From a virus: a DNA stretch of 29,659 bases. The notes under the pieces are model-generated. The model was not told the origin of the DNA, did not search any database, and saw only the letters and a list, made by a program, of their open reading frames with translations. Of this stretch, positions 5,854 through 26,183 are shown piece by piece. Location of the stretch: IMG/VR virus record IMGVR_UViG_640427134_000001, positions 1-29,659 of that record, one strand, 5' to 3'. The translations under genes and the position numbers were made by a program. How positions within the stretch are numbered: the first letter of the stretch is position 1; each line of letters starts with the position of its first letter.

Positions 5854-5900
5854 TATACACATTATCGCAATGATTGTGCTACGCCCTGTTGGCGTGTTCC
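5854..5900 (-). promoter_or_regulatory. Putative phage late promoter, copy 5 (LPD1 gene)
   Basis: GGAACACGCC (5900-5891), 24 nt, GATAAT (5866-5861, preceded by TGC), A at 5854. Confidence 0.7.
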
Positions 5901-5955
5901 TAGAGACAAAAAAAAGGACCACGCTAACTGGTAACGCAACCCTTACTCACAAAGA

Positions 5956-6639
5956 TTATTTGATCAGCGTCAGGCAGTCTAAAAATTTGATTGCGTACCC
6001 TGCTATCAGTGTGTCTTTGTCAGTACCGTTAATGACTCGACGAGCGTTTTTAAACTGCTCAAACGAGCCATATCTTATGTATCTTGATAGTGATTTGCCA
6101 GTGAAATGACCTTCCAGCATGCCAACGATCATAATATCTGCTGCATGTTTTGGGTCTAGTGCCAGTTCAGGCTTATTCACAAAATCTACACCTAGTAATT
6201 TACGCATCACGACATAGTTTGTTAACCAGGTTAGCTGCACATAACCACGGCCATAGTAAATTGGAAGTAAATCAGAGTACCTACCGCCATGGATATCAAT
6301 ACGACTACCATAAGGCCTACCACGGCCTTTGCCGTATTCTTCGATGGGCCTCATGGTTCTTGCTGTTTCATGCCAGGTAGTAGCTAGCATATAAGCAAAA
6401 TAAAGCGGATTAATAGCATTGCCGCCGTATTGGTTGCAGGCTTCTAAAATACTATCAAACCCATTAACCTGGGATTGCTTTAATGGTCCAAAGTGTTTAG
6501 CAAGTTTGCCCGGCTCATAGGCAAGTCGCTTGCCAGAATCAGTCAAAGATTTTTGCGAGTTCAGACCCCATAATCCATCGGCTTTGGCACCAGCCTGCCC
6601 TTGTAACCTCTTGATATTTTCTCTAATATTTGCGGTCAT
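5956..6639 (-). CDS. Endolysin, glycoside hydrolase family 19, with a short N-terminal PG-binding-like segment
   Basis: AYMLATTWHET, YYGRGYVQLTWLTNY and ARRVINGTD GH19 motifs; ADGLWG near the N-terminus. Confidence 0.92.
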   Translation of the reverse strand: MTANIRENIKRLQGQAGAKADGLWGLNSQKSLTDSGKRLAYEPGKLAKHFGPLKQSQVNGFDSILEACNQYGGNAINPLYFAYMLATTWHETARTMRPIEEYGKGRGRPYGSRIDIHGGRYSDLLPIYYGRGYVQLTWLTNYVVMRKLLGVDFVNKPELALDPKHAADIMIVGMLEGHFTGKSLSRYIRYGSFEQFKNARRVINGTDKDTLIAGYAIKFLDCLTLIK

Positions 6640-6961
6640 TTTCTCTAAATTCTCTTATCTTGCTTTTAAGCTTACTAATCCTTTTGGTACTGCCCGCTAT
6701 ATCTAACATCAACACAGCCATTGATAAGACAAACAGTACTCTTGCTAAAATCGTATGTCTTGAAGGCACAAACACCGTACTACCAACATCAGCCCATAAA
6801 AGCCCCAACCATATGAATCCATAAAGAACTATCAAAGTAGAGGTTGATTTGCGGTTGGTGCAATATCTGCCACTAAACATAACGACTGAACACATAAACA
6901 ATCCAAGGTACGGCGTTATATTATTAATGACTTGCAAGTTGATGATGATTGGATGTTCCAT
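6623..6961 (-). CDS. Lysis-cassette membrane protein (putative holin/antiholin)
   Basis: Three hydrophobic segments and a basic C-terminal tail; overlaps the endolysin start. Confidence 0.6.
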   Translation of the reverse strand: MEHPIIINLQVINNITPYLGLFMCSVVMFSGRYCTNRKSTSTLIVLYGFIWLGLLWADVGSTVFVPSRHTILARVLFVLSMAVLMLDIAGSTKRISKLKSKIREFRENDRKY

Positions 6962-6963
6962 TT

Positions 6964-7482
6964 TTACCTATCCCTATTTCCTTTAGTGAAGATGTGGGCC
7001 AGCCATGACACTCTACTAATTAACAGCTTACGTACTGAGTCTTGGAGTTCTTTATCACGCTTTAAGTCACCTAGGTTGTTGATAAGCACTACACCTGAAA
7101 ATGACATAACCAATGCTGTCATTAGCATAACTTCAATCGGTGGGCTTGCAGCGTCGGTAAGCGCTGGTAATAAAACAAATGCTCCAACAATTCCACTAAA
7201 AAACCCGCCAGCAAGATGAAATATTTGTTGTAATACGGAAGGTCGCTGATCCATATCGCTTGTATAAATGTCCGTAAGCAAAGATGCTGCTGAACCAAGC
7301 ATACTCAACAATAAAACAGTAAAAAAGAACACCCAAATAGGGAGATTGAGGTATAAGAAAGTATGCGTTTGATTAAGTTGATCCGTAATAGCCACTGCAC
7401 TAGCAGACGCACTAAATATGCTTGCCAGCGAGCTACCAATCAGGCCAATAGTAAGTTTGGCCGTATCAATATTATGTTGCAC
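6964..7482 (-). CDS. Putative holin-like membrane protein
   Basis: About four hydrophobic helices, GTG start with AGGGG RBS, two genes upstream of the endolysin. Confidence 0.6.
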   Translation of the reverse strand: MQHNIDTAKLTIGLIGSSLASIFSASASAVAITDQLNQTHTFLYLNLPIWVFFFTVLLLSMLGSAASLLTDIYTSDMDQRPSVLQQIFHLAGGFFSGIVGAFVLLPALTDAASPPIEVMLMTALVMSFSGVVLINNLGDLKRDKELQDSVRKLLISRVSWLAHIFTKGNRDR

Positions 7483-7516
7483 CCTTCACCCCTTTACATA
7501 CACTCGAACACGCTTG

Positions 7517-7762
7517 TTACCGACGTGCTGTTAAAATCTTAATAATAGCGTCCAGCCTCTTATATAACCCCATTTGTGCTGTGCCATCCCTTTCAATCAC
7601 CTTAGAACGATAATCAAAAGCAGTTGATCTTTCGTATAACTCAACGAAGTTAAGGCTCATTTTAAGCGCTTCGTACATGCTCGTTTGGCCATGTTCCATT
7701 AAGAGAACCACGTCACTCAACAATATATCTTGCAAGCTGTCTCGCGTGCCCTCGTAACTCAA
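7517..7762 (-). CDS. Small ORF overlapping the PmgB-like gene; probable frameshift extension of a tail chaperone
   Basis: Fills the gap to the holin gene, has a TTG start without RBS, overlaps upstream by 50 nt and begins at CCCTTTTT. Confidence 0.55.
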   Translation of the reverse strand: MSYEGTRDSLQDILLSDVVLLMEHGQTSMYEALKMSLNFVELYERSTAFDYRSKVIERDGTAQMGLYKRLDAIIKILTARR

Positions 7763-8450
7763 AAAGGGCTTGAAATCGTGCTGGCATGTATTCGCCAGCT
7801 ACCTCCCCAATTACCGTGACACCTTTGTTGTCAATACTTGTAAAAACATAATGCGATAAGTTGAGTATGAGCGTGTCAAACAATTCGGCCAGGTTGTTAA
7901 AATCAAACTCGCTAAGATTGCTAAGGGTTTCAGCTCTAGCTAAGATCTGTTTGCTTAGCTCGTTTTGGGTTAAGCTTATGTCTAGCTTGTCCCAAACCAT
8001 ATCACCACCCACAATGCTGCTGAGATTACCAAAAAGCTGGCAAGCCATAAGACCACAAGTCCAATCAAACAAGTTTTCACAAATTGCTTCAAGTAAGCAG
8101 ACATGAGCACCTCTAATATGTTGTACGCCTATACCCGTTGTTTCGTCTAAATGTTCCTTTGGTACCATAGACTCCACTGTTTCAACCACGTACTCGCTTA
8201 AATTGCTTTCAGCTGAATACTTGTTTTGGGATAAAGCTTGTTGGTTTAATAAAAAGTAATAACGCTCTTGTACTGTTAACTGATCTGCTAAGCCTTGATA
8301 GCCGGTTAGCAAGGTAATTAACGCACTGATGCGCTTTTCGTTAAAGCGCTCTGGTATCTTGGCGATATCCATAGCTTGTCCGATCGTAAGATCAGGAATT
8401 GGTACGACATGCTCAAGTAACTGCAACTGCATTACTGCAACGTCTGTCAT
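7713..8450 (-). CDS. P1 PmgB-like tail/baseplate assembly chaperone
   Basis: LTIGQAMDIAKI...LTVQERYYFLL and the C-terminal PARFQA resemble recalled P1 PmgB; ATGA-coupled to the upstream gene. Confidence 0.55.
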   Translation of the reverse strand: MTDVAVMQLQLLEHVVPIPDLTIGQAMDIAKIPERFNEKRISALITLLTGYQGLADQLTVQERYYFLLNQQALSQNKYSAESNLSEYVVETVESMVPKEHLDETTGIGVQHIRGAHVCLLEAICENLFDWTCGLMACQLFGNLSSIVGGDMVWDKLDISLTQNELSKQILARAETLSNLSEFDFNNLAELFDTLILNLSHYVFTSIDNKGVTVIGEVAGEYMPARFQALFELRGHARQLARYIVE

Positions 8451-9301
8451 TTCTTGCCTCCGTTAGATGATGCTCTTAGATTTGCTATATCGTATTTATC
8501 CCAGGCGGTTAGGGACAGCAATGTTATTTGAACCTTGATCGCGATTCTGTCACCGTTTTTATTCATCGGTGCTGTAATAGGCGCTGATAAGCTTTCAATA
8601 AACATAGGCTTGTATGTTTTACCAGCATATTGAAACTGCACAAGCGAAGGTATGGTCGATGCAAACATACCGTCAACACCTTCGCTAAGCGTACCCACCA
8701 CTAACGACGTATCTGACAATTTTCTAGGTGATGCGTATTGCTGCAATACATTTAATGCACGTTCAACTTCGGAAGCTGCATCAATCCACGCCTGAAAAAC
8801 AAGCGTCCCACTAATGCGCACCGAGCTTGAAGAAGTATAGACTTGACGGCTATTAATCTTAGTAAACGTGGATTTATCTTTTAATCCCGCCAGCTTGTCG
8901 GCAGCGTCACCGACAACGCCCTTAACCGCGCTGTCATCCGCTGTTTCTGAATCCAGGTTGAAATAACTATACATTGACGCAGGTAGTTCGCCTGATTGAA
9001 GCATCCCCATCATGGTAGGCATCCGCCCTTCTGGATTCGATGTTTCAAACGGAGTTGAATACTGGGCCTCAACTGTAAACTCACCATCTTCAAATAGCGC
9101 AGCAATAATAGTATTGCCCTCAATGGGGTTATAGGTCTGTTTGCCCTGGCCACCTTCCAAGTTATCCTCTGATACCGGTCGTATCTTGGCGATAAGTCGC
9201 TGATTTAGGCCTTTGTGCATCCAAGGCACGCCCGATCCTACTACTATGCTTTTCTTGGGCTTGCTTGCATTATCCGCCGGCTTGTTTGTATTTTTTTTCA
9301 T
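8447..9301 (-). CDS. P1 PmgG-like tail tube-fold / baseplate protein
   Basis: QYSTPF...NSRQVY...GTLVFQAW.D...EVE.AL..L...ASP...IPSLVQF...APMNKNG resembles recalled P1 PmgG. Confidence 0.6.
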   Translation of the reverse strand: MKKNTNKPADNASKPKKSIVVGSGVPWMHKGLNQRLIAKIRPVSEDNLEGGQGKQTYNPIEGNTIIAALFEDGEFTVEAQYSTPFETSNPEGRMPTMMGMLQSGELPASMYSYFNLDSETADDSAVKGVVGDAADKLAGLKDKSTFTKINSRQVYTSSSSVRISGTLVFQAWIDAASEVERALNVLQQYASPRKLSDTSLVVGTLSEGVDGMFASTIPSLVQFQYAGKTYKPMFIESLSAPITAPMNKNGDRIAIKVQITLLSLTAWDKYDIANLRASSNGGKK

Positions 9302-9303
9302 CT

Positions 9304-11115
9304 TTACTCTACCGCTTTAGTTTTCTGCAAACTCTCAATAGCTAAAGACACCAATAAGTCACGATAATGTTCAAGTGTATCTTTGAAAATCTGTACAAGA
9401 TCAGGCCTATCTGCCTCTTCAATCTTGCCAGCCAGCTCTTTTGCAAAGTCACTATCAAATTCCAGTGGGTCAAAGCTGCTTTCTGATACTTTGTCGCTAA
9501 GGTTTTTAACCTGTTCGCCAAGGTAATCAGTTTCGTTTTCTTTATTGCTTACTAGGCCTAAATCCTTACGCAACTGCATAATCTTTTTAAGCGCTTGTAG
9601 CTTTTGCAAATTACCTAATGTTTTGGCGTCTGATACGGCTGATTTAAGCTCTTTAATCTTTTTAAGTTTTTCAAGCGGTGTTAGTGTCATTGAGTCGAAC
9701 ATATCTAACCCTTTGTCGTTACCGTAAATACTTTGAACCTTATCAACTGCATAGTTAGCAGCGTCTTTGGTACTAACAGGTGGTGAGCCAAATAAATCAT
9801 CAGCGAGGCCGTGTTGAGACTCTTTTTCACAAAACTCGGCCATGGCTTTAAAAAATAATCCCATCTTTTTTGCACTACGGTTGTTTGTAGCAATAAACAC
9901 GGCTATTTCGGCCACGCCTTCTTCCAGGTCGCTAAATAGTCCTAACTGCTTAACATATTCTGCAACGTCCTGGTTGTTATCCTTGGCACTGATAACGACA
10001 TTGGTTGCGTCAATGATTGCGTTTGTAACCTGGTCATCAAGGCCCTTTTCAATGCTATCTACAATCTCGCTAGATATATCTTGGACATTGCCGCGGCTGA
10101 TTGCTTGAGCCTCAATAAACTTAGGTGCGGCCACGCTCAAGGCATTTAGTACGTTTTGTAGCTCTGGCTTTGCGTCATCGGCCATCATTTCCGTTAATCG
10201 CTCGTCATTGTAGGCCTTGCTAAAAATGGCCGCCTTCATGCGTGCTACCAGCGCTTGTGTTGGCTTACCGTCTTTTGTGGTGTACTGGGCCGCCTCTGTA
10301 TCGCCTAATTGCTTTAAGAAGGCAATAACAAAGTTATGGTTACTAGCTGCCGTTAAATCCCCGTTTTCACTTGGATTGAATAGCATGAGCATGTGGTCAT
10401 CTAGCATTTTAGCGTCCGTCTTGGCTCGCTCTGTTGCACTGTATGACAGCTTATCGTCCTGGTTGGCCTCAATAGCAAACTTAACTCGATCAACCTCGCT
10501 GGTTCTAATCCTAATCAGTATTGGCCGTTTAAATGCTTCTACGTCTTTGGGGCTAAACCCCAGGTAGTCGGCTTCATCAATGAGCCAATCCCTATAATCA
10601 TCGGCTGTGCCATTGTCATAAGCCATAGCTATTGCCATAGTTCGGCCGTTACCACTTTCCACGGCCATATCATCACCGACAATAGGCGCTCCACTATCAG
10701 CCCTGCCAGAACGCCCTAAGCTTTCAGGGTCAAGATCACGTGATACTTTTTGCACCCATGCGACTGATGAATCACGGCCACGATCACGAGGCTGTAATTC
10801 TTGCGGATATATTGGGTTCTGGCTGCCGCTTGCCGTGTGACTAGCAATGACGTTATCAATTTCAGTTACGGCTAGGATCGTTGACACCCTACTCCCCTTT
10901 GCTGTTTTAACGTTATTATTGCGTCCTTTAATAACCTTGTTTACCTGGTTGGTTTGGCTGTTTGAATTATCTGATTTAACAGATAAGCCAAGATCAGTTC
11001 TAAGCTGCATAACTCTTTTTATTTCATCAAGGCGCTTTAACCCATCAAGGTTTTTAGCGTCTGATATAGCAGCCTTGAGCTGCTTCACCAGTTCTATCTT
11101 CTGTAAAGGTGTCAT
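9304..11115 (-). CDS. ddrB: DdrB-like virion protein with ddrB-ParB domain
   Basis: VKTAKG...NPIYPQELQPRDR...DSGAPIVGDDMAVESGNGRTMAI is the DdrB ParB-like signature; directly downstream of darA. Confidence 0.88.
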   Translation of the reverse strand: MTPLQKIELVKQLKAAISDAKNLDGLKRLDEIKRVMQLRTDLGLSVKSDNSNSQTNQVNKVIKGRNNNVKTAKGSRVSTILAVTEIDNVIASHTASGSQNPIYPQELQPRDRGRDSSVAWVQKVSRDLDPESLGRSGRADSGAPIVGDDMAVESGNGRTMAIAMAYDNGTADDYRDWLIDEADYLGFSPKDVEAFKRPILIRIRTSEVDRVKFAIEANQDDKLSYSATERAKTDAKMLDDHMLMLFNPSENGDLTAASNHNFVIAFLKQLGDTEAAQYTTKDGKPTQALVARMKAAIFSKAYNDERLTEMMADDAKPELQNVLNALSVAAPKFIEAQAISRGNVQDISSEIVDSIEKGLDDQVTNAIIDATNVVISAKDNNQDVAEYVKQLGLFSDLEEGVAEIAVFIATNNRSAKKMGLFFKAMAEFCEKESQHGLADDLFGSPPVSTKDAANYAVDKVQSIYGNDKGLDMFDSMTLTPLEKLKKIKELKSAVSDAKTLGNLQKLQALKKIMQLRKDLGLVSNKENETDYLGEQVKNLSDKVSESSFDPLEFDSDFAKELAGKIEEADRPDLVQIFKDTLEHYRDLLVSLAIESLQKTKAVE

Positions 11116-11124
11116 GCCCGCCCC

Positions 11125-13848
11125 TTATAAGTCTGATGATTCTTTATCAACTGCGCTTAATACAACATCTAACGCTTGAGTAAATAGCGGGTTGTGTTCG
11201 TCTTTTTCGCCAATAACTGTCAGCCTATCAAGGTCAATATCATCGGTACTTAAAGAGCCATCGATGATTGAATTTAGGTAATCTGTATCATCTTGGCTAT
11301 AGGCTGTTTCTGTTTGCTGCATCGCATGTCCTTGTTCAATATCACTGACTTCTTGTTCATCACTTCCAATATCCTCAGGGGCATTTACTGTGGCTACATT
11401 TTGTTCATTTAAGCTCCCGATATCTTGATTCAACCAGTTATTGGCCTTTTCAATATATTCAGGTAAGTCATTGGTATATTGATAATCGACAACTTCACCA
11501 TCTTGTGACCATTCAATGGTAAAGTCATTAGGTGATTCCTTTGCCGACTCGCCATCATAGTTTTTGAACTTGCCTTCAATTTCAACTCTTCGGTTAGATA
11601 CTTCTTTAACCGCTTGGAATACGCCTAATCCGGCATGTCTTGGCTCGATAAAAGTTGTAAAACCGAAAGATTCAGCAAGTCCATTGAGCTTTTCTAAACC
11701 TTTTTCCGTCAACACTTTTCTAGCTTCCCAGCGCTCAGCATTCGCCATAGCGTCCTCGTCATTATTGGCATAACGTGCATAAGGGTTTTCAGGGGAATAG
11801 CTGCTATCTTTGATCTCATTAAATACTGACTCAAATTTAGGATACTTGTTTAAAAGTTCAGCTTTACTGTCAAACACTTTAGGCATGCCGTAACCGCTAC
11901 CACTGTCACTATAAGCTCGTGACTGAGCATTGTTAGCATATACAGCAAAACCACCATCATCTTTACCATAAACAAGCCAGTGACTATCATTTTTACTATA
12001 CATATAGATCTTGATGGCCTGGCCTGCCTCTGTATTGCCTTGATATTCATAACGCATGCCATTTGAAGCAAATTTGATATTAGGTTCAGGCAAGTCATTC
12101 GCATTGATCGCTGCCTCCTCATTAGCTTTTTTCGAGCTACTAACAAGAACATCTAAGTAAGTCTCATAGTTACTTAGGTTCACAGTTTTATAGAATCCCG
12201 ATGGCTGTATACGCAATACAACCTCATTCTCAGCTATGTTTAACCCAAGGTTTTCAAAGGCAACAGCTCGGTTATCCTTATAACCAGTTCCCACAATTTT
12301 TGAGGGTCTTATTTGCTTGTTTACCAATTTGTGTAGCTGCGATACCGACTCTTTTAGATCATCTTGTAGGCTTTGAACTGAAAAACCAGACTCTTCATTG
12401 GAGTTTATTTTTTCTTGGTACTCACCTTCTGATATAAACGACACTCCCATTGAGGTAAGTTGTGTTTTTAAACTCTCAATATTCTGTTTAAGCTTGGTTT
12501 GTGCGGCAGTATCTAAAATCCCCAAGCCTCTTTGTACGCCATCTAGCAGTCTTTTTTTGTATCTAGGCTCAATATCCAGGCTATCTATATCAATGCTGTT
12601 AACCTGAATATTCATATCTTGCGAGCTATCATCATTTGTTGTTTCTGTCGTATCTTTGTCTGCCTTGCCTTTATTCGCTTTCATAGCAGCGTCAATCTGA
12701 TCTTTTAAGCTGGCAATATCGTTATCTAGCTGCTCAATAGTTTGTTTCTTCTTCTCAATATTGCTTTGAGCTTCATTGATATCAGCGTCACGCTTAGCTT
12801 TGCGCTCTTGAGCACGTTTAAAGTTTTTACTGTTTTTGCTGGCAAGCAACATCATTTGACGTGCAAGAGTTGGAATTTTGACGTCCTGGCCGTTAATCGG
12901 TGACAAAATAGCGGTTACGTCGCGTTTGTTTAACAGCCATTTCCAGCTAACCATCATATCGCCTGCCAGCAATTTGCTAGGCGTGCTGTCAGGGTTGTGA
13001 AACCAAATAGATAGTTTTTGGCCGTCCGATAAATCAAACACAAAAGCAACGTTTACCACGCCACCGCGTTTAAATGGCTTGGTTTGAGTGACATTGGTTA
13101 CAGATAGGGTTTCATTTGAGGCCTGGCTCATTGCTCTAAATAAGCGATCTTTGAGCATTGGCAAGCGGTTAACCGTTTCCATGATTGAGTCGAACTCGGC
13201 TTCTTCTGCCTCTAAGTCAATCAACGCTTGCTGTAAGTCAAACTCTTGTGTCAGCTCTTTAAACGTGTCAGCTCGGATCATATCTGTGTATAGATTGGTT
13301 AAGCTGCCACCATGGCTTGATAGGGTTAGGTTATCCCATTGAACATCATTAAAAGCGGCTCGTGTCGCTTCTTCTTGTAGCTCTTTTGATGTGATGATTG
13401 GTAGGTAGTGCTTATCTTGTGAGGGGTTATCTAGTAGCTTAGAGATAGCATCAATTGACCATGCTTGGTCATCTGTCATGTGATCAAACTGCATACCTTC
13501 GGCATAACCTACAAGTACGCCATAATCTGCGCCCAAACAATCAAATTGAGTGGTTGCTAGTGATAATGCATGATCTTCATCTAAAGCGCCGCCAATCGCC
13601 ACTGAGTCAACGTAATGACCGCCGTTTTCAAATAAGTTCACAACGTGCCAGCTATCATCATTACTGCCAGCTTTTGCATCAAAGCCCAATCCGTCAAAAC
13701 CAGTCTCGTCAGCGATCAAGGCCAGCATATCTCGGTACTCACCTTCGATAAAGCCAGTCTCATAACGGCTGTAACGCGTCTGTTCGTTACCGTATCGATC
13801 TTCTGTTAATTGGTTGGCGTGCGCTGTGCCTGTTTTAATGTAAGACAT
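11125..13848 (-). CDS. darA: DarA (defence against restriction A)-like internal head protein
   Basis: DarA N-domain KPFKRGGVVNVAFVFDLSDGQKLSIWFHNPDSTPSKL...SWKWLLNKRDVT, a coiled coil, and a DarA C-domain-like DTDYLNSIIDG...LFTQAL. Confidence 0.88.
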   Translation of the reverse strand: MSYIKTGTAHANQLTEDRYGNEQTRYSRYETGFIEGEYRDMLALIADETGFDGLGFDAKAGSNDDSWHVVNLFENGGHYVDSVAIGGALDEDHALSLATTQFDCLGADYGVLVGYAEGMQFDHMTDDQAWSIDAISKLLDNPSQDKHYLPIITSKELQEEATRAAFNDVQWDNLTLSSHGGSLTNLYTDMIRADTFKELTQEFDLQQALIDLEAEEAEFDSIMETVNRLPMLKDRLFRAMSQASNETLSVTNVTQTKPFKRGGVVNVAFVFDLSDGQKLSIWFHNPDSTPSKLLAGDMMVSWKWLLNKRDVTAILSPINGQDVKIPTLARQMMLLASKNSKNFKRAQERKAKRDADINEAQSNIEKKKQTIEQLDNDIASLKDQIDAAMKANKGKADKDTTETTNDDSSQDMNIQVNSIDIDSLDIEPRYKKRLLDGVQRGLGILDTAAQTKLKQNIESLKTQLTSMGVSFISEGEYQEKINSNEESGFSVQSLQDDLKESVSQLHKLVNKQIRPSKIVGTGYKDNRAVAFENLGLNIAENEVVLRIQPSGFYKTVNLSNYETYLDVLVSSSKKANEEAAINANDLPEPNIKFASNGMRYEYQGNTEAGQAIKIYMYSKNDSHWLVYGKDDGGFAVYANNAQSRAYSDSGSGYGMPKVFDSKAELLNKYPKFESVFNEIKDSSYSPENPYARYANNDEDAMANAERWEARKVLTEKGLEKLNGLAESFGFTTFIEPRHAGLGVFQAVKEVSNRRVEIEGKFKNYDGESAKESPNDFTIEWSQDGEVVDYQYTNDLPEYIEKANNWLNQDIGSLNEQNVATVNAPEDIGSDEQEVSDIEQGHAMQQTETAYSQDDTDYLNSIIDGSLSTDDIDLDRLTVIGEKDEHNPLFTQALDVVLSAVDKESSDL

Positions 13849-13855
13849 GATAAAA

Positions 13856-13924
13856 AACCCTATTACGATAAAGATAATAGGGTTATTTTGTCATTAATAT
13901 AAGGCTGTGTTTTAGGGGTGTTCC
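13856..13924 (-). promoter_or_regulatory. Putative late promoter copy 4 with RBS-masking hairpin (darA operon)
   Basis: GGAACACCCC (13924-13915), 24 nt, CAAAAT (13890-13885, preceded by TGA), A at 13878; perfect 10-bp IR at 13856-13865/13875-13884. Confidence 0.78.
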
Positions 13925-13931
13925 CAGGCAG

Positions 13932-14216: not shown

Positions 14217-14225
14217 GATTAATCC

Positions 14226-18107: not shown

Positions 18108-18616
18108 GAACCGTTATAGTTAATTTCAATACTTTGCAGGCTATTAAACGTACTATTGCCTTGCTTAGCTTCAAGATCAGCCGTGCTATCAACGCTAAAA
18201 GGGTGTGTATTAAACGCCTCCCTTTTCATTTCTAGCATAGCTTCTCTGTGGTTTTGGTAGGCCTCACTTGAGCTCATGCCAACCGGCTGAACCCCTAAGT
18301 TTTGAGCGCCTTCCATGCGTTTAGCTTGCATAAGGTCGCACTTAGCCACAACAACAGGCCTAATAATGCTCCATTCGTCGTTGTAGATATTTGTTGTGCT
18401 ATCAAGAAGTAACGTATAGGTATCATCTTTATCATCAAGATCATACGCACGTAACGCACCGCCCCATGCCAGGTAATCACGGCAAACATCAACAATAATA
18501 CGCTCTACATCACTTTCAAGAAGTGAGTAGCCGGTCGTATATAACTCTTCATAAAATCGAGTGGCGACACTCTTAATATCGCCCTCGATGTAACTGTCTT
18601 GTCTGCTAGTAAACAT
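18098..18616 (-). CDS. Virion morphogenesis protein, possibly a head-tail adaptor
   Basis: Helical 172-aa protein tightly packed in the structural operon; function inferred from size and position only. Confidence 0.45.
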   Translation of the reverse strand: MFTSRQDSYIEGDIKSVATRFYEELYTTGYSLLESDVERIIVDVCRDYLAWGGALRAYDLDDKDDTYTLLLDSTTNIYNDEWSIIRPVVVAKCDLMQAKRMEGAQNLGVQPVGMSSSEAYQNHREAMLEMKREAFNTHPFSVDSTADLEAKQGNSTFNSLQSIEINYNGSWK

Positions 18617-18627
18617 ACAGGCTTACC

Positions 18628-19248
18628 TTAACCAAATGTAGTGGTGCCACCAATGGTAGAAACTGGTTTATAGCCACCAAATGCGTTTAATGCGTTGGTC
18701 AATAGGCCGGCAAGTTTGTCAGCAGTACCGGCGCCAATATCACCAGTTTGGCCAAAGTAGTTATAACGGCAAGTTACTTGAACCTGTAAGATCTGGCTGC
18801 GGCTTGCTGAATCAATCTCACCACCACCATCAGGGAAGGTGATCGCACAGTCTTTAAGCAAGTATTCAGTCTTACCTTTAATCTCATTACCATCGGTAGC
18901 GAACCCATCATAAACACGCACCAGTGGGATCTCGCCATTGTGTTTAATAACGATATCTTCTGCAAACTTAGCGATGGTGCCTGATTCAGTTTCAATCATG
19001 GTCCACTGGCCTTCAAAGTTTGTTTTAGGCGGTGCGGTAACGTGGGCCTGGAAGCCGTAAGCATAATCTGCGTCGGCTGGCTCGTGGTTGGTTATCATTG
19101 GGCGCTGGAAGTTTTGAATAAGGATATAAAGGTTTTCGTAACCTTCTGGCTTACAAATTGCGTTACAAGCAAGCATAGCTGAGCCCAAAGACTTGGCCAG
19201 CTCGTGCATTTGAGAATAGGCTTGCAAGGTAGGTGAAGAACTTTTCAT
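18628..19248 (-). CDS. Tail tube protein (P1 BplB-like)
   Basis: GYENLYILIQNFQRP...IETESG.I..F...LKDCAI...RYNYF resembles recalled P1 BplB. ATG 19248 (AGGG RBS) is preferred over TTG 19266. Confidence 0.7.
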   Translation of the reverse strand: MKSSSPTLQAYSQMHELAKSLGSAMLACNAICKPEGYENLYILIQNFQRPMITNHEPADADYAYGFQAHVTAPPKTNFEGQWTMIETESGTIAKFAEDIVIKHNGEIPLVRVYDGFATDGNEIKGKTEYLLKDCAITFPDGGGEIDSASRSQILQVQVTCRYNYFGQTGDIGAGTADKLAGLLTNALNAFGGYKPVSTIGGTTTFG

Positions 19249-19250
19249 AG

Positions 19251-19323
19251 AAATAACCCTAATCAATAATAAGTGATAGGGATATTTTGGGGTATAAAGG
19301 TATTGAGCTTTTAGGGGTGTTCC
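19251..19323 (-). promoter_or_regulatory. Putative late promoter copy 3 with imperfect RBS-masking hairpin (tube-portal operon)
   Basis: GGAACACCCC (19323-19314), 24 nt, CAAAAT (19289-19284), A at 19277; imperfect IR at 19251-19265/19274-19287. Confidence 0.75.
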
Positions 19324-19368
19324 TGAAAATTTTTTAGTGCCTCTGGTTCAAGAATCAAAACAATTTAA

Positions 19369-19377
19369 TGATATAAT
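19369..19377 (+). promoter_or_regulatory. Extended -10 sigma70 promoter of the DsbD_2 moron
   Basis: Perfect TG-A-TATAAT about 100 nt upstream of the TTG start. Confidence 0.6.
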
Positions 19378-19480
19378 CCTTGATTTCTTCCTCCTCACTT
19401 TAGAATACGATATCGATACTAATACTGTGAGTGATTAAAAAATCAAATATTATGGGTCAAATTGACTACAAGGATTAAAA

Positions 19481-20305
19481 TTGACAACTCCTTTATTATT
19501 AGCAGCATTTGCTATGGGCTTTTTTGGTTCACCACATTGTTTGGGTATGTGTGGTGGCTTGGTTACCGCTTTTGGCCTATCTATGCAAGAAGTAAGCCCA
19601 CTAAAGAAAAGAGGGCTTATTGCTACTTATCACTTTGGTCGCCTGGTTAGTTACTCAATTCTAGGGGTTATTGCAGGTATTGTGGGCACCACGGTCTTAG
19701 CCCCACTATTAATGGGTAACTCAACCCCGCGTATTTTACTGGGTCTGGTATTGGTATTCATTGGCCTATCTATGCTGGGCATGCCTTTTTTAAATAAGCT
19801 TGAAAAAGTGGGCATGGGCGTTTGGAAAAAACTCTCCCCTTTACGTCAAAAAGTTTTCCCAATAACTACCTTCCCAAGGGCTTTAGCAGCGGGTTTATTA
19901 TGGGGCTTTTTACCTTGTGGCTTGGTCTATGGCGCTCTACTGATGGCCGTTGTCGGCAATAACATCGCAACTGGGGCTTTATTAATGTTTGTCTTTGGCT
20001 TAGGCACGGTTCCCATGTTGGTCGCTACCCAAGAGACTGTGGGCTGGCTACACAAACAAATTGGCCGCTATAAATTACGTCAATTAAATGGCGTCGTAAT
20101 GATTTTGTCAGGACTGGCAGTAATTGCCCTGCCTATAGCCATGCATAGCATGGGTGGACACGGCGATCACGGCTCGCATGGCGCACATCAAATGCATGAT
20201 GATTCAGCGATGATTTCTACTACGCACGACCACTCTCAAGATATGCACGGTTCTAATACTGAAGAGCATCATAACCATGATCACTCACATGCTAACCATC
20301 AGTAA
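19481..20305 (+). CDS. DsbD_2 / TauE-SafE-like metal-handling membrane protein with His-rich tail (moron)
   Basis: GSPHCLGMCGG, YHFGRLVSY, LWGFLPCGLVY and FGLGTVP motifs, 6-7 TM helices, His-rich C-terminus; AGGA RBS at 19471-19474. Confidence 0.9.
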   Translation: MTTPLLLAAFAMGFFGSPHCLGMCGGLVTAFGLSMQEVSPLKKRGLIATYHFGRLVSYSILGVIAGIVGTTVLAPLLMGNSTPRILLGLVLVFIGLSMLGMPFLNKLEKVGMGVWKKLSPLRQKVFPITTFPRALAAGLLWGFLPCGLVYGALLMAVVGNNIATGALLMFVFGLGTVPMLVATQETVGWLHKQIGRYKLRQLNGVVMILSGLAVIALPIAMHSMGGHGDHGSHGAHQMHDDSAMISTTHDHSQDMHGSNTEEHHNHDHSHANHQ

Positions 20306-20316
20306 TTGAAAACGCA

Positions 20317-20952
20317 TTAATATGGAGATAGATAAGCCACATGATAGCGATAGCCGCCAGCAGCAACAGCAACATCAACCTGGCTGAAATCAACAGAGAC
20401 AGCAATTTCAGGTACGATATTCCAGGGAACCAGCTTTTCTAAGACGGGGGCAATATCTGAAATATCACTATTGTTATCATTAAGCGTTAATGCAATACGC
20501 ACACGGCTAGTTAAAAACGAGCCTGGCATTTGCTTTTCGCTTACTGCTACTGGGTAAGCATTTGCCAGCTCTTTTGAGTGCCAAAGCCTCAATACCCTGT
20601 TATTTCCAGGAAACAGCATGTTTAGTACGAACTGCAAAAAGTCTAGGCCACGGCCGCTGGCCATACCCTGCCAGGCAGATAAGATCATAGCCATAATATC
20701 AGTTGATAGCCCTTCTGTATCTTGTCTCAAGATCACCAGTCCGTTAAGCTTACTAAATCGCTCAATAACAACTGGGCTGCTTTCAAGCCATGGCGCACCA
20801 TAGCTATTCATATCAACCAAGCCTTCAAGCTCGTATTCCTCAATCAGCTTAGTAAAAACACCTGCAATGGCTTCATCAAGCTCGTTTGCCTTATGGCTCT
20901 CTTGTACCGTTCTAGTAAAGTCGGCAGCCTGTAATTTGCTTGTTCTACCCAT
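20317..20952 (-). CDS. Baseplate wedge protein (P1 gp16-like)
   Basis: Immediately downstream of the BplA-like gene; contains RGLDFLQFVL...LWHS...YP...FLTSRVRI. Confidence 0.6.
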   Translation of the reverse strand: MGRTSKLQAADFTRTVQESHKANELDEAIAGVFTKLIEEYELEGLVDMNSYGAPWLESSPVVIERFSKLNGLVILRQDTEGLSTDIMAMILSAWQGMASGRGLDFLQFVLNMLFPGNNRVLRLWHSKELANAYPVAVSEKQMPGSFLTSRVRIALTLNDNNSDISDIAPVLEKLVPWNIVPEIAVSVDFSQVDVAVAAGGYRYHVAYLSPY

Positions 20953-20953
20953 T

Positions 20954-22426
20954 TTACAAAGTCCAAATAGCTGTGCCAGTGTCGGCCGTTCTTGTCATGT
21001 CGATAGTAATGCTATCCTCTGTGATATAAGCCCATTCATGCGGTTTAATGGGGTTTTTAGCAGTATCTTCTGTTAAAACTGAAAAGTCACTAATACGGTC
21101 CTGGAAGGCTGTAATATCACTTCTAATCTTAATGGCAATTTCTTGTTTATTAAAACCGTCTGGGCTGTGGTAGCTTGATGATAGCGAGCCTTTACCAAAG
21201 TTTTCTAGCAGCAACTCTTTGATTTGAGTCTTTACTGAATCCATATCATGCACCGAGGCCAAACGGCCAGCAATGGTAATCTTATAAGGTCTTTCTTTAA
21301 CCTCTTTGATATTAACCTTACCATCTAGCAGCGTATCAGCATTGGCTACCAGCTTCTTAATATCTTCTACCAGCGCCTTTTGCTCAATCTTGTTTTTAGC
21401 TACCACGGTTAAAAATAGATGGTTGATTGCGTCCAATGAGGCCCCGTAGTGCTTCTCATTGATCGTCTCATTCCAAATGGCCATGTAGTCAAAACGCTGC
21501 ATAAAGTGCTTGCGTACTAAAAAGTCAAAGTTACCCATGAAAACGGCGTTATGGTCATACATTGAAGGGTAGCTGGCAAGTAGTCGCATTTGAGCCACGC
21601 TTAACGGATCTGCGCCGGCTCGAACAAGATCACCGGCTTTGAAATATAGGTTTAACTTGCTTTCCTCTGACTCGTAAATCTCACTCAAGGCCGCGCTGCT
21701 TAGGCTTGATTGGTCAACATACCCATAGCTTTGAGTGATTGCGATCTCGTAGGTATCACCGGCTTGTACTGTCACGCCGGCACGTTCGGAGTCGCCAAAA
21801 ACAATTGTTATATCTTCAAGGTTATGGCTTTGTAGTGTATAAGCCGCCTGGCCCAAACCGGCGTTCATAAACTTGGGCGTGTACTGAAAATTCATACCCA
21901 AAGTTGCGTTATAAACTGACAAACTCGATAGATAGGCGCCGTCGGTTGTTGATACGTCTAGGCGATAAAAAGACTCACTAACAGGTATGTTAACCTCAAT
22001 ATGATTAACAGTGCTTTGCTCTGCTAGAACCTTTTTGGTTTCATGGCCGTTTAGCGTTGCTGATGACATAAGACGCCATTGTCTGCCCGTACCGTCCTCA
22101 ACTAAACGGCCCTGGCTCAAACTAACCTTGCTATTCCCATTGTTCTCAATAGTTAGCATGTACTGGCAAGGCGTGGCAACTGGCAATATACCCTTGTTGA
22201 TAGCATCTGCAATGATCGTGCTTTGCTTAGACTTGATAAACGGCTCTGTAATGTTTACCTGGTTATCACGCGATAGCCATAAGACAGTTTCCACTACCGA
22301 AGTCATCATAGCTCTTACTGTGGGATCGCCAGCTCGCCAGCGTTCTGCAACTTCTGGATAGTCGTTTAAATGACTGTCTATACTTGATAGTATCTTTTTT
22401 CTTAGCTGGTTACTGGGCACTGACAT
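20954..22426 (-). CDS. Baseplate J-like wedge protein (P1 BplA-like)
   Basis: About 490 aa with EPF...STI.A.A..KG, IVFGD...G and GADPLS...R motifs. ATG 22426 has AGGA 8 nt upstream, preferred over TTG 22444. Confidence 0.72.
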   Translation of the reverse strand: MSVPSNQLRKKILSSIDSHLNDYPEVAERWRAGDPTVRAMMTSVVETVLWLSRDNQVNITEPFIKSKQSTIIADAINKGILPVATPCQYMLTIENNGNSKVSLSQGRLVEDGTGRQWRLMSSATLNGHETKKVLAEQSTVNHIEVNIPVSESFYRLDVSTTDGAYLSSLSVYNATLGMNFQYTPKFMNAGLGQAAYTLQSHNLEDITIVFGDSERAGVTVQAGDTYEIAITQSYGYVDQSSLSSAALSEIYESEESKLNLYFKAGDLVRAGADPLSVAQMRLLASYPSMYDHNAVFMGNFDFLVRKHFMQRFDYMAIWNETINEKHYGASLDAINHLFLTVVAKNKIEQKALVEDIKKLVANADTLLDGKVNIKEVKERPYKITIAGRLASVHDMDSVKTQIKELLLENFGKGSLSSSYHSPDGFNKQEIAIKIRSDITAFQDRISDFSVLTEDTAKNPIKPHEWAYITEDSITIDMTRTADTGTAIWTL

Positions 22427-22739
22427 TATAGTAATCCTGATCAATATCGGTTATTGGGTTTTCATTTAGCTGAATATCAATACCGCCAATAGATAAGATG
22501 ACGTTAATCGTATCAAATCCCACTGTTTCAATGGATATGCTTAACTGATCTTCATCTAGTGTATTTATTATCGGTATATCGGCCCTAAGCTTGCTTAAAA
22601 ACTCGTCTGCTACATCGGCGGACAACTCTTTTAGCAGCATGGCCTTGGCATCTGCGCCATAGCCTTGAGCAAAATAACCGTTAGGTGGCGTGTCCAACCA
22701 ATGAATAATCATCTGTCTAATGTGTTCGGCGGTAATCAT
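22410..22739 (-). CDS. Baseplate wedge / sheath initiator (GPW/gp25 fold, P1 gp26-like)
   Basis: HWLDTPPNGY..QGYG...L...L...FLSKLRADIP; directly upstream of the J-like gene. Confidence 0.7.
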   Translation of the reverse strand: MITAEHIRQMIIHWLDTPPNGYFAQGYGADAKAMLLKELSADVADEFLSKLRADIPIINTLDEDQLSISIETVGFDTINVILSIGGIDIQLNENPITDIDQDYYNVSAQ

Positions 22740-23176
22740 TTGATACGCACCTCGGATAATGGGGTATTGGGGTCTGGTAGTCTTATCTTAGATCTTGTCT
22801 TTTTGGCCTGGGTTATAAGCTTAGACGCATCAACAAATCTTGAGTTCTTAATGCAAACTAACAGTATATCAAGCCATACAAAAAACGATCCTAGAATGGC
22901 CATAATAATAAGCAAGCCAGCGCCGCCAATACCCCATGACTGCGATATAACCATCACGGCATAAAAACGCCATAGCAAGAACATAAGCAATATTAAAAGT
23001 GGCACGCTTAGTAATAGCGATTGACGCAAGGTTTGACCGATAGCCACGGCCAATGTATTGCTATCAATAACTTTGTTGAGTAGCTTTAATCTGCTAATGA
23101 TATCTACATACAAGTAAAACATCATAATCATTAACATACCGCTTAAAAAAAAGTCCACTATATAGGCGTTTTGCAT
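22736..23176 (-). CDS. Three-TM membrane protein, function unknown
   Basis: Three hydrophobic segments and a basic tail; AGG RBS; ATGA-coupled to the next gene. Confidence 0.65.
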   Translation of the reverse strand: MQNAYIVDFFLSGMLMIMMFYLYVDIISRLKLLNKVIDSNTLAVAIGQTLRQSLLLSVPLLILLMFLLWRFYAVMVISQSWGIGGAGLLIIMAILGSFFVWLDILLVCIKNSRFVDASKLITQAKKTRSKIRLPDPNTPLSEVRIK

Positions 23177-23185
23177 ATCACTACC

Positions 23186-23725
23186 TTATGCTGCGTTTTG
23201 CTGTTTTACTTTCTCTAATTGAGCCTCAAGATCTTGTTTTTCTTTGGTCTTAACTGTAATTACTTTATCCAGCTCTGCGGCCTCTTCCAACAGTGATTTT
23301 AACGTTTGAGCTTTGTTGGCTGGCGCTCTATTACGCTTAGTTCTTGTTACCTGGGCGCGGGCTCGCCGGGCACTAAATGCCTTTTGGCCCTGGCTAACAA
23401 GTTTTGCGATCTCGTCAACTGATGCGTTGAATGACGGCTTGTAAGAGTTATCAAAGTCACCGGTAGTTGGCTGTGTTTTGCTGTTAATATCAATACGGAA
23501 AATATCCAGCCCATCCGGCTGATCTGATTCAGGGGCTTCTCGAATATAAAGCTTTACAACCTGGCCGCCGTCTAAAGCGATATGAACAGGCCTGGCACTG
23601 GCACCAGATACCCTCGATACTCTTAAAACATCCACCACAACAACTTGCTGCCTAGCTGTTTTGGCCAAACGCTTAACAAAGTCGCTGACAAGCGATGTTT
23701 TTTCTGTGATTTCTGACAGTTTCAT
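23186..23725 (-). CDS. hdf: Hdf-like protein (DarA N-terminal-domain paralogue)
   Basis: R.SG...RPV...LDGGQVVKLYI...DIFRIDINSK..P plus a C-terminal coiled coil, as in recalled P1 Hdf. Confidence 0.7.
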   Translation of the reverse strand: MKLSEITEKTSLVSDFVKRLAKTARQQVVVVDVLRVSRVSGASARPVHIALDGGQVVKLYIREAPESDQPDGLDIFRIDINSKTQPTTGDFDNSYKPSFNASVDEIAKLVSQGQKAFSARRARAQVTRTKRNRAPANKAQTLKSLLEEAAELDKVITVKTKEKQDLEAQLEKVKQQNAA

Positions 23726-23730: not shown

Positions 23731-23802
23731 AATAACCCCAAACAAATTAAATGATTGGGGTTATTATGACTTGCTGTTAGCTGTTATTAGTTGGGGTGTT
23801 CC
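23731..23802 (-). promoter_or_regulatory. Putative late promoter copy 2 with RBS-masking hairpin (hdf-baseplate operon)
   Basis: GGAACACCCC (23802-23793), 24 nt, CATAAT (23768-23763), A at 23756; perfect 11-bp IR at 23731-23741/23755-23765. Confidence 0.8.
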
Positions 23803-23808
23803 AACAAA

Positions 23809-24705
23809 TTACATGCCAACACTGCGGCGGTAGTGGCTTGCTTTTAGGCCGCGACGCATATTGCGTGCTTTTTGTGGGTCAATGTTATAGATATTGCGCT
23901 GTAAGCCTTTAGCAAATGACATCATACGCTTACGAACCGCTGAACCCGTGGTTGATTTTCTGCGAGCTTTTTTAAGGGCTGCTTTTTGGGCTGCACTCAA
24001 GCGAACCTTGCCAGCAATACGCTTGTTAACAACCTTGATTTTACCATCACGAACCGCTTTGACTGCTTTGTAAGTAACGTTTTTACCGCCTACTTTGCGG
24101 CGTATTTTACGGCCAACTGTTAAAGGTTTTTTGGCTGCGTCGTACATGCCTTCATCTTCTTCTTTCATCATTGCGTCATAAGTGGCTTCGTCACCGTATG
24201 CAAACACTGAAATAAAGTCGTCTAGCTCGTCATCGGCTGGCATGTTCTCTAAGATGATCTCTGATGCTGTTTCGATCGCCGCGTCTGCAATATCAACATC
24301 GCTATCAAACACATCATTAATCAAATCTTCATCAACGCCTAGAGTACTCATAGCGTCTGCGATATGGGCTGATAAGATTGTTTTTACAGTTGAGTCGATT
24401 TCGTCGTCGTCATCTTCTGGATCTTCAACAAATGACTCAAGGATTAGGCTATCCAATAACTCACTTGGTAGTAGCTCTTGGTCCTCAAAATCAACCTCTG
24501 ACATGATGCCAGCCAGCATGAAGGCTACTTGCAGTGCTGCTAAGCGCATTTGAGTGGTTGAGTGCGCGGCGATGCGCTCGTCGATCGGGTCAAAATCAAT
24601 AGATTCTGCCGCTTGTTTGGCGCTGTTAGTTGCGTCAAATTGCGCCTCTTGACGCTCTAACATGCGATCCTGGTTACGCTCGATAATATGGCTTGATACT
24701 AACAT
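23809..24705 (-). CDS. P1 gp21-like protein (acidic N-terminal part, very basic C-terminal part; possible prohead core protein)
   Basis: VRDGKIKVVNKRI...RLSAAQKAALKKARRK..TG matches the recalled P1 gp21 C-terminus; it follows the sheath gene as in P1. Confidence 0.7.
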   Translation of the reverse strand: MLVSSHIIERNQDRMLERQEAQFDATNSAKQAAESIDFDPIDERIAAHSTTQMRLAALQVAFMLAGIMSEVDFEDQELLPSELLDSLILESFVEDPEDDDDEIDSTVKTILSAHIADAMSTLGVDEDLINDVFDSDVDIADAAIETASEIILENMPADDELDDFISVFAYGDEATYDAMMKEEDEGMYDAAKKPLTVGRKIRRKVGGKNVTYKAVKAVRDGKIKVVNKRIAGKVRLSAAQKAALKKARRKSTTGSAVRKRMMSFAKGLQRNIYNIDPQKARNMRRGLKASHYRRSVGM

Positions 24706-24738
24706 TCTTTATTTCCTTTTACTGATCAATAAACTGCA

Positions 24739-26112
24739 TTACTTAGTGATTGTGGTTTCAAAGTAAACTTGTCGAGCACAACCTTCGGGGCGTTTAACAA
24801 GTCTAATATCAACTTTTTCAAACGGGTTATCTGCTCGTGGTGCCACTTCTAAGCCGTATAGCTTGCCTGATAGCTCTGCTACTGGCTGTAACAAGCCAGC
24901 TGAACTACAAGCGTTTAAGAAGCGGCGGATCTCTGCGTCTGCGTCATTGATGTAGCTAGTCATACCTTTAAGTAAGTGCTTTTTAGCAATGCTAACTACT
25001 GCGTTATCAACGTAAGTGGTAATTTCAGATGCGTTGATTAAGCGTAAAGCACTTGTTTTGCTATCGTATTGAGTAATAGCGTCACCATAAATCCAGCGAT
25101 CGCCTGCATCAAAGCGCTCATTCAATACCACGTTCACGCCAGCTGAAGCCAGTGCGTTTTGGGCCTCTTCATCAAGGCTAACGCTTGGCATGGTTTCCAT
25201 ATCACGGAAGCTAACAGGGAAGTCATAACCGGCAACAGGGCGGTTAACAGGTGGAATACCAGACGCATTGGTAAGGGCGTTACGAACAAGTAATTGGCCT
25301 AGGTAGTCACCGACACAAGGGCGCCATTTTTTGCGTGATAGTACGCTTGCGCTGTTTGAAGGGCGTGATACGTTCGGGTTCCAAAAAACCCAAAAACGGT
25401 GGTCTTTAATGTTGATAGATTCAGCAAGGGCCGCCGCTGCTACCCAGTCGTTGATCTTACCCAGATCCAGTAATACGTGACAGTTAAGCTTATCCATTAC
25501 CTTTGTTGTGGCTTCGATAACCGGCATGTCATCGGTTGAACAAACAACAATGTAACGTGGGCGTTCACGCATATCAATTAAAGTGCGTGTGATCTGCTCG
25601 GGTGTTGGCTCTACAACCTTGCTGGCTGGCACGTCAATGACAATTTCAGCCTTGCGGTATGTACCGTGGTCTTTTAGGGCCTTAACAGCTTTCAGCGCAT
25701 CTACAACCTGAGCCGCGTTATCTTTAGAATAGGTCGTTTCGACTTGTTCAAAGAAGTCATTGCTGCTATCTAATGCACCATGAAAATCAAGCTTTTGCGT
25801 GATGTATGAGAAGTCGTTTGGATAGTTGTTTTCAAGCTCGTCTGCACCGCCGCCAGTGTATAAACGGCCTTGCAGTGAAGTGATCATACTATCATCAACT
25901 TTATCAGCAAATGTAATGTCAAATAACAGGTTATTTAACGGGTCAGCTGCGTTAGTTGGTGTCTTATCATCAACTACTTGAATCTTGGCCACGACGTTGT
26001 GGTCAAAGCCGTATTCAGTAACAAGCTCGATAGTTGCTAATGCCTTACTTTCCTTGCTATTGGTAATAGTAACGGAAGTAGGCAGGATATTAATAAACAG
26101 TTGAGTTGCCAT
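24739..26112 (-). CDS. Contractile tail sheath protein (P1 gp22-like), apparently lacking the usual N-terminal domain
   Basis: PVAGYDFP, LASAGVNVV, IYGDAIT, SALRLIN and C-terminal VKRPEGCARQV sheath motifs. Confidence 0.8.
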   Translation of the reverse strand: MATQLFINILPTSVTITNSKESKALATIELVTEYGFDHNVVAKIQVVDDKTPTNAADPLNNLLFDITFADKVDDSMITSLQGRLYTGGGADELENNYPNDFSYITQKLDFHGALDSSNDFFEQVETTYSKDNAAQVVDALKAVKALKDHGTYRKAEIVIDVPASKVVEPTPEQITRTLIDMRERPRYIVVCSTDDMPVIEATTKVMDKLNCHVLLDLGKINDWVAAAALAESINIKDHRFWVFWNPNVSRPSNSASVLSRKKWRPCVGDYLGQLLVRNALTNASGIPPVNRPVAGYDFPVSFRDMETMPSVSLDEEAQNALASAGVNVVLNERFDAGDRWIYGDAITQYDSKTSALRLINASEITTYVDNAVVSIAKKHLLKGMTSYINDADAEIRRFLNACSSAGLLQPVAELSGKLYGLEVAPRADNPFEKVDIRLVKRPEGCARQVYFETTITK

Positions 26113-26117
26113 AAAAA

Positions 26118-26183
26118 ATGCCTATATTGGTGAATATAGGCATAGTATAGAGTTGGGCTAACAGTATTGTTTAGGGGTGTTCC
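26118..26183 (-). promoter_or_regulatory. Putative late promoter copy 1 with RBS-masking hairpin (sheath operon)
   Basis: GGAACACCCC (26183-26174), 24 nt, TATACT (26149-26144), A at 26137; perfect 11-bp IR at 26118-26128/26133-26143. Confidence 0.8.

Follow-up and report, generated by a model that had tools for sequence, protein, structure and literature searches.

The virion, lysis and anti-restriction genes of a Psychrobacter prophage are probably transcribed from real, activator-dependent late promoters of one fixed design, and their most likely activator is an XRE-type protein. The DNA analysed (the window) is a stretch of 29,659 nucleotides (nt). It comprises the first 29.7 kb of the 111-kb Psychrobacter provirus record IMGVR_UViG_640427134_000001, which is called G000 in the comparisons below. 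The host element is an integrated prophage of Psychrobacter, distantly related to P1. Each promoter consists of the box GGAACAC(C/G)CC and a -10 hexamer placed 24 nt further downstream. The factor that turns these promoters on is very probably a DNA-binding protein of the phage other than Lpa, the late activator of P1. No match was found when the window was compared with a phage collection by megablast, and relatives were found at the protein level only. Relatives of the sheath protein come from Psychrobacter sp. UBA3962, P. sanguinis, P. piscatorii, P. aquimaris and Moraxella boevrei. The complete Psychrobacter genomes compared were G000, G001 (76.7 kb), G004 and G005. The closest isolated phage is Acinetobacter vB_AbaM_ABMM1 (OQ471969; PMC10345192), whose proteins are ~30% identical.

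The box occurs exactly five times in the window, always on the minus strand and always in an intergenic gap. Two further matches with one mismatch are present in the window, and both lie within genes. The composite pattern GGAACACSCC-N24-NANNNT-N6-A gave 5 matches in the window versus 0.00 in 100 dinucleotide-preserving shuffles. The five box coordinates proposed in an earlier, sequence-only reading were all confirmed. An anchored alignment agreed with the hexamers which that reading had placed at N24, and with the A seven nt later. With the predicted +1 placed 7 nt downstream of the -10, the box occupies -46 to -37 with its centre at -41.5, so that the arithmetic of the earlier reading also holds. 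The downstream genes are those it had named: Pfam identified LPD1 (PF18796) and DarA_N (PF18788), and PHROGs identified the tail tube, the Hdf-like and the tail sheath genes. The predicted promoters are as follows.

5854-5900, minus strand: predicted late promoter of the LPD1-domain gene (3470-5824); box GGAACACGCC at 5900-5891, -10 GATAAT at 5866-5861 with TGn before it, +1 at 5854.
13878-13924, minus strand: predicted late promoter of the DarA_N gene (11125-13848); box at 13924-13915, -10 CAAAAT at 13890-13885, +1 at 13878.
19277-19323, minus strand: predicted late promoter of the tail tube gene; box at 19323-19314, -10 CAAAAT at 19289-19284, +1 at 19277.
23756-23802, minus strand: predicted late promoter of the Hdf-like gene (23186-23725), kept before hdf homologues in relatives; box at 23802-23793, -10 CATAAT at 23768-23763, +1 at 23756.
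26137-26183, minus strand: predicted late promoter of the tail sheath gene (24739-26112); box at 26183-26174, -10 TATACT at 26149-26144, +1 at 26137.

The -10 hexamers of the window match TATAAT at 4-5 of 6 positions, and A2 and T6 are invariant in 5/5 sites. No -35 is evident, as had been noted before; the best match to TTGACA at 16-18 nt reaches only 1-4 of 6 positions. A sigma-70 consensus scan of 3400-23300, which spans the boxes at 5900, 13924 and 19323, called none of the three promoters (0/3), and overall it found fewer promoter-like sites than in shuffles. The P1-type late box AAGTGACTT, which stands four nt before the -10 in the P1 record, is absent from the five gaps, in agreement with the earlier reading. 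The near-matches to it in the window are all in coding sequence and have no -10 four nt downstream, and 0 of them fall in the five gaps. The promoters have a usable -10 but no -35; therefore the host sigma-70 polymerase should need an activator bound at the box. This activator would bind the asymmetric sequence GGAACAC(C/G)CC(TAAA) at -46 to -37, directly upstream of the position of sigma region 4. The geometry would be class-II-like, as for lambda cI at OR2/PRM, with the box adjoining the vacant -35 position.

Beyond the window, the record contains two more exact boxes (36566 and 44283). The description of a five-copy motif is thus correct for the window; for the whole record there are seven exact copies, and nine sites with the core GGAACAC and a -10 at 23-24 nt (those beyond the window being 36566, 40138, 44283 and 52460). 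The late strand carries all nine core sites, each followed by a leader of 25-45 nt to the start codon. Moreover, every late-strand intergenic gap of at least 80 nt holds a site, except the terminator-like gap at 34579-34667. As judged from the sequence, the nine predicted sites head every late operon of the prophage, including the virion, lysis and anti-restriction genes. The earlier division into five operons is right for the window, except that the late genes at 26198-29659 (~3.5 kb) belong to an operon starting at 36566, outside it. The tail tube gene probably starts at ATG 19248 rather than at TTG 19266 of the mechanical list of open reading frames (ORFs), because an SD-like (Shine-Dalgarno-like) TAGGG is present and the leader is 29 nt, as in other late genes.

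The design is conserved in relatives. In 25 loci with sheath homologues (52-100% identity), the box and the -10 were found before the sheath and hdf genes, whereas the 24-nt spacer has diverged; the orthologous sheath promoter is kept in 12 divergent loci. The information content was computed over 26 promoters from three complete genomes. GGAACA carries 1.8-2.3 bits, positions 7-10 of the box carry 0.4-1.5 bits, a weak TAAA follows, and the spacer has ~0.2 bits. The A2 and T6 of the -10 (1.6 and 1.3 bits) are the most conserved positions of the hexamer. No second half-site or dyad was conserved around the box in these 26 promoters. Six late promoters of G001 read GGAACAGCA(C/A). In ABMM1, GGAAC(T/C)-N29-(-10) precedes at least 11 late genes despite ~30% protein identity; its box shares only GGAAC(T/C) with the boxes described here, whereas the layout of promoter and hairpin (see below) is common to both. 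The same promoter design is also found in prophages of Faucicola, Moraxella, Alkanindiges and A. boissieri. On the Pseudomonas putida plasmid pKF715C, where N28-30 was scanned, the N29 geometry is kept with G(C/G)AAA(C/G) as the box. This pattern has 9 matches on the late strand versus 0 on the other, and 6 of them lie 31-58 nt before an annotated start. The plasmid is itself P1-related (L066 2145-17450), and several of its promoters overlap terminator-like hairpins. The spacing between box and -10 is constant within 1-2 nt across genera. The family-wide rule, in terms of sequence pattern, is a box of 5-6 nt, 29 nt and a -10, with GGAAC-N29-(-10) as the core in the relatives from Psychrobacter, Moraxella, Faucicola, Alkanindiges and Acinetobacter.

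The motif is phage-specific. In the genome of Psychrobacter sp. FME13 (3.7 Mb), the pattern GGAACACNNC-N21-24-TANNNT has 9 matches; the reversed control pattern has 8, which are scattered. A common host repeat, which the earlier reading had considered, does not fit this distribution, since 7 of the 9 matches are on the 70.9-kb phage contig, on one strand. The box might also be no transcription signal at all, or a repressor operator; one could imagine a site for packaging or replication, a binding site of a nucleoid protein, or a repeat lodged in gaps. However, the spacing from box to -10 is fixed across genera, the sites are strictly co-directional with the genes and stand at a constant distance from the start codons, they have no -35, and their flanks are not conserved as in a mobile repeat. 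A role outside transcription activation is therefore considered extremely improbable.

The sequence-only reading had also allowed for a phage sigma factor. In promoters of the extracytoplasmic function (ECF) sigma factors, the -35 core is of the GGAAC type, and the core of the present box resembles it, so that GGAAC could be the -35 of an alternative sigma factor (ECF-like or phage-encoded). However, the distance from GGAAC to the hexamer is 29 nt, ~12 nt beyond any spacer of the sigma-70 family, and nothing is conserved 16-17 nt after GGAAC (0.1-0.3 bits). The A2/T6 signature of the hexamer is that of a housekeeping -10. Moreover, the Sigma70_r2 and r4_2 domains are absent from the four complete genomes, whereas the positive controls were detected. 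This part of the earlier reading found no support, and a sigma factor reading GGAAC as its -35 is very unlikely.

The other part, an activator different from Lpa, agrees with the searches. P1 Lpa (gp10) gave nothing below E = 6 against G000 by tblastn, and no match in G001, G004, ABMM1 or pKF715C; the positive control, P1 itself, gave 5e-100. Lpa evolves fast, and the absence of a homologue is therefore weak evidence; the P1 box is also not used here. Members of the Mor/C (PF08765) and Ogr/Delta (PF04606) families were not found above the cut-off in the four complete genomes.

A second regular feature lies downstream of the hexamers. Each -10 is immediately followed by an inverted repeat. The SD-like GGG/AGG forms its 3' arm, after which come a T-run and the ATG. 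From one promoter to the next the arms co-vary, and in relatives the 5' arm can take in the -10 hexamer itself. The hairpins of the window are as follows.

5914-5944, minus strand: terminator-like hairpin with 13 pairs and a T-run, just before the box of the LPD1-domain gene; it ends the upstream operon from DarA to the endolysin.
13848-13893, minus strand: hairpin of the DarA_N gene, with the 5' arm over the -10/+1 region and the 3' arm containing the SD-like TAGGG, then a T-run and the ATG; -14.4 kcal/mol, also scored as terminator-like.
19251-19287, minus strand: promoter-embedded hairpin of the tail tube gene; -10.1 kcal/mol.
23731-23765, minus strand: promoter-embedded hairpin of the Hdf-like gene, AACCCCAA / TTGGGGTT, then a T-run and the ATG; -15.8 kcal/mol.
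26118-26143, minus strand: promoter-embedded hairpin of the tail sheath gene, ATGCCTATAT / ATATAGGCAT, then a T-run and the ATG; -12.2 kcal/mol.

The predicted folds differ with the origin of the RNA. RNA from upstream has its SD paired and a folding energy of -8 to -29 kcal/mol, whereas RNA from the predicted +1 reaches only -1 to -5 kcal/mol. Transcription would start ~7 nt after the -10, inside the hairpin, and the promoter-initiated RNA would lack the 5' arm and have a free ribosome-binding site (RBS). In read-through RNA the hairpin would fold, the SD would be hidden, and in several cases termination might occur at the T-run. For example, the hairpin at 13848-13893 would form only in RNA coming from upstream of the DarA_N gene. 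Each operon would thus be expressed essentially from its own activated promoter alone. The assigned -10 and +1 positions are indirectly supported by this layout, because starts further upstream would give every late mRNA an occluded RBS.

Such a layout has been reported for the T4 genes e, soc, 49 and I-TevI, where the late promoter is in the DNA of the 5' arm of a hairpin that sequesters the SD or AUG, and only the promoter-proximal transcripts are translated (PMC3014915). The T4-type layout, with the promoter in the 5' arm and with structure in the long RNA but not in the promoter RNA, is predicted at 8/9 sites of G000. It is weak at the 5900 site, where the embedded hairpin is weak and a separate strong terminator (5944-5914) stands ahead of the box. 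The same layout was seen in relatives, including the late genes of ABMM1. In T4 it concerns a few genes with gp55 late promoters; whereas here, in a temperate phage, almost all late promoters show it, and several of the hairpins, unlike those of T4, also bear a terminator-like T-run. The coupling of promoter and hairpin predicts how a temperate phage could keep its lysis and virion genes silent in read-through RNA.

Several of these hairpins, such as that at 13884-13856, resemble intrinsic terminators. This would suit antitermination of the Q type, in which the box would be a loading site, and the hairpin with its T-run a terminator read through by the modified polymerase. However, the 5' arm overlaps the -10/+1 region (in relatives the -10 itself), so that RNA from these promoters cannot contain the hairpin. 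The Q antiterminator family (PF06530) is absent from the four complete genomes, and there are nine sites here versus the single late promoter of lambdoid phages. The probability of a Q-type mechanism is accordingly put close to nil.

Comparison of the G000 ORFs with the three complete relatives revealed two common non-structural genes, at 63845-64534 and 62958-63845. The first encodes a 229-amino-acid (aa) protein of the HTH_3/XRE family (phrog_7396), with a helix-turn-helix (HTH) domain, and it is the sole conserved non-structural gene for a DNA-binding protein. The gene is at the end of the early leftward operon, outside the window. The earlier proposal that the activator is encoded outside the window agrees with this conserved candidate, whose role is inferred from its position. 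The product of the second gene (295 aa) has no Pfam family and is small-terminase-like by language-model features only; it looks like a small terminase subunit, which is a lead only. The pair of HTH and terminase-like genes is located directly before the first late promoter in G004, G001, G005 and ABMM1 (gp68 and gp69). The gene order of ABMM1 (RusA/VRR-NUC, HTH gene gp68, gp69, late genes) is that of the complete relatives. The HTH gene also co-occurs with the sheath gene in ABMM1 and in 9/9 Acinetobacter plasmid records.

The recognition helix NRISEIE(N/S)G is near-invariant where GGAAC is kept; the exception is G001 (GGAACAG box), which has NRICEIEKG. The plasmid pKF715C encodes a distant HTH homologue (E = 3.5e-8) with the helix GVTQISLFENG, together with its different box, and this gene also adjoins a small-terminase-like gene. 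P1 has no homologue of the XRE protein. An AlphaFold model of the protein (pLDDT 75) shows an XRE domain, a hairpin of two long helices, and a disordered tail with a conserved YQYSLPLP. A Foldseek search with the model returned generic XRE domains only, at E > 0.02, including ImmR, controller C proteins and lambda cI-NTD with sigma region 4 (1rio). Taken together, the positional and phylogenetic evidence gives about an even chance that the late activator is this 229-aa protein of the XRE/Cro-C1 type.

The promoters might also be activator-dependent with another activator, either a different phage protein without a recognisable domain, a host factor, or a complex. The HTH protein would then have another role, for example as a second repressor or as the packaging partner of the terminase-like gene product. 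The assignment of the HTH protein is solely positional and phylogenetic, and there are many small early ORFs without a family match. The asymmetric box differs from typical XRE operators. Moreover, P1 Lpa has no detectable homologues outside P1, which indicates that late activators can escape sequence searches. However, no further non-structural gene besides the HTH/terminase-like pair is common to the four complete Psychrobacter genomes. The HTH protein is the only conserved DNA-binding protein, and it accompanies the motif from Psychrobacter into Acinetobacter and, as a variant, into Pseudomonas. A different activator thus has a lesser but real probability.

Several points weigh against the XRE protein as activator, or against strict dependence on an activator. 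The start sites, the timing, the activator dependence, the identity of the activator and its contact with sigma or alpha are all inferred. TGn precedes the -10 at three promoters, including the 5900 site, and these might fire weakly unaided. In G000, ~11 kb of cargo including LrgAB splits the HTH gene from the late region. Synteny and co-occurrence were observed in phages of common ancestry, and hence they are not independent. A dyad or a repeat would be the expected target of a coiled-coil XRE protein, and for a dimer of this type the asymmetric box is unusual. The first late promoter of G001 retains GGAACAC, and the box difference maps imperfectly onto the protein change. For the same reason the box switch in G001 (GGAACAGCA versus GGAACACCC), which was considered as evidence for co-evolution with the HTH protein, was taken as suggestive only; it also concerns a single lineage.

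Another candidate was rejected as activator. The DUF2310 zinc-ribbon gene (G000 46267-47067) neighbours the 44283 promoter, which has the first exact box, but it is missing from the three complete relatives and lies beyond an IS3 insertion, and it was assigned to the cargo.

Comparison with P1 showed both similarities and differences. The genes for virion, lysis and anti-restriction functions (tube, sheath, Hdf, DarA, DdrB and LPD1) are related in the two phages. In both, the late operons are headed by many dispersed promoters that lack a -35 and combine a -10 with a single short conserved box. The P1 late promoters, which are activated by Lpa with the host protein SspA, include LPmat, LPpro, LPlyz, LPdar, LPs, LPsit and LPpac. 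In the P1 record they are annotated as AAGT(G/T)ACTT-N4-TAnnnT. That box is 4 nt before the -10 (centre about -22); whereas GGAACAC(C/G)CC is 24 nt before it, with its centre at -41.5. The position of the candidate regulator gene is similar to that of lpa. In the P1 record lpa stands immediately before LPpac and the pac genes, and here the HTH gene precedes the terminase-like gene.

The candidate also resembles lambda cI, as it is an HTH protein of the XRE/Cro-C1 type, its predicted site abuts the -35 position, and cI-NTD with sigma region 4 (1rio) is among the fold neighbours of the model. However, the site of lambda cI is a pseudo-dyad of 17 bp and PRM has retained a weak -35, whereas the site here is asymmetric and has no -35. 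Mor/C of Mu (sites near -43.5) and Ogr/Delta of P2/P4 are small phage activators which act upstream of -35-less promoters, at several dispersed late operons. Their sites are dyad-symmetric; the present box is asymmetric, and both families are absent here.

No mention of promoters was found in the paper on ABMM1 (PMC10345192). Searches of open-access full text likewise yielded no description of the motif or of late promoters of these phages. The late-gene switch is apparently undescribed, and conceptually it is an ordinary activator-dependent late regulon. A wider proposal is held with slightly less than even confidence. In this proposal, a new family of XRE-type late activators (ABMM1 gp68-like; phrog_7396) would read an asymmetric GGAAC 29 nt upstream of the -10 and run the complete late regulon of temperate phages and phage-plasmids related to P1 across Moraxellaceae (with the box G(C/G)AAAC in Pseudomonas). 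It would replace Lpa, and its promoters would be joined genome-wide to hairpins that hide the RBS.

The results give an operon map and a testable late switch for P1-related prophages and phage-plasmids of Psychrobacter, Moraxella and Acinetobacter. This group is large and little studied; one member, the A. baumannii phage ABMM1, has been isolated and allows a direct test of the prediction. The P1-type virion module would thus be run by at least two unrelated late-promoter designs, namely the Lpa box at -22 and a box at -44 served by a probable XRE protein. Moreover, the strict N29 spacing with an asymmetric site of 5-10 bp offers a clean setting in which to study the recruitment of polymerase by a single-site activator to promoters lacking a -35.

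Some minor sequences resemble the box or the promoter. Three promoters carry a short inverted repeat in the spacer directly after the box, at window 5874-5895 (minus strand), G000 36541-36563 and G000 40117-40130; the repeats are CACGCC..GGCGT, ACACCC..GGGTGT and TGGCA..TGCCA, respectively, and were not seen at the remaining sites. The sequence GGAACACGCG is inside the LPD1 gene (window 3790-3799, minus strand) and is present in G005 too. It lacks an nAnnnT at the required distance, no start codon follows, and it is probably not a promoter. The sequence GGAACATGGCC (window 7687-7697, minus strand) is followed 22-23 nt on by TTAAAAT, inside the coding segment for the tail chaperone and its frameshift (7483-7712). 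The equivalent site (GGAACACGGC/G ... TTAAAAT) is kept in G004 (14094), G001 (12623) and the FME13 phage contig. By its sequence this site may be an internal late promoter, or it may be conserved merely as coding sequence. In G001, GGAACCA repeats form an array within the terminase-like gene beside the HTH gene (57019-57213, minus strand; loci L037/L084); it resembles the core of the late box, but is in coding sequence.

Accessory genes were found at several places of the prophage. An IS3-family element (HTH_Tnp_1 and rve) is inserted just upstream of the 44283 promoter (G000 44424-46023, plus strand). Past this element are the DUF2310 gene and trypsin-like genes, which are absent from relatives. 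The cargo at G000 52468-62821 (~10 kb) includes LrgA/LrgB, a divergent gene of 293 aa and four large genes (1112, 313, 431 and 828 aa). G004 and G001 lack this cargo and G005 has part of it; it could be a defence or modification module. Within the window, a DsbD_2 gene (19481-20305, plus strand) separates the end of the hdf operon from the tube promoter. This gene encodes a membrane protein resembling cytochrome c biogenesis proteins and thiol-disulfide transporters; it is absent from 3/3 complete relatives and therefore has the appearance of a moron (accessory cargo). The tube operon ends with an ORF of 94 aa (window 13932-14216, minus strand) that is similar to the N-terminal part of the sheath (PHROG sheath, 2.8e-5), and its paralogues are found at G000 30866-31258 and 32825-34078.

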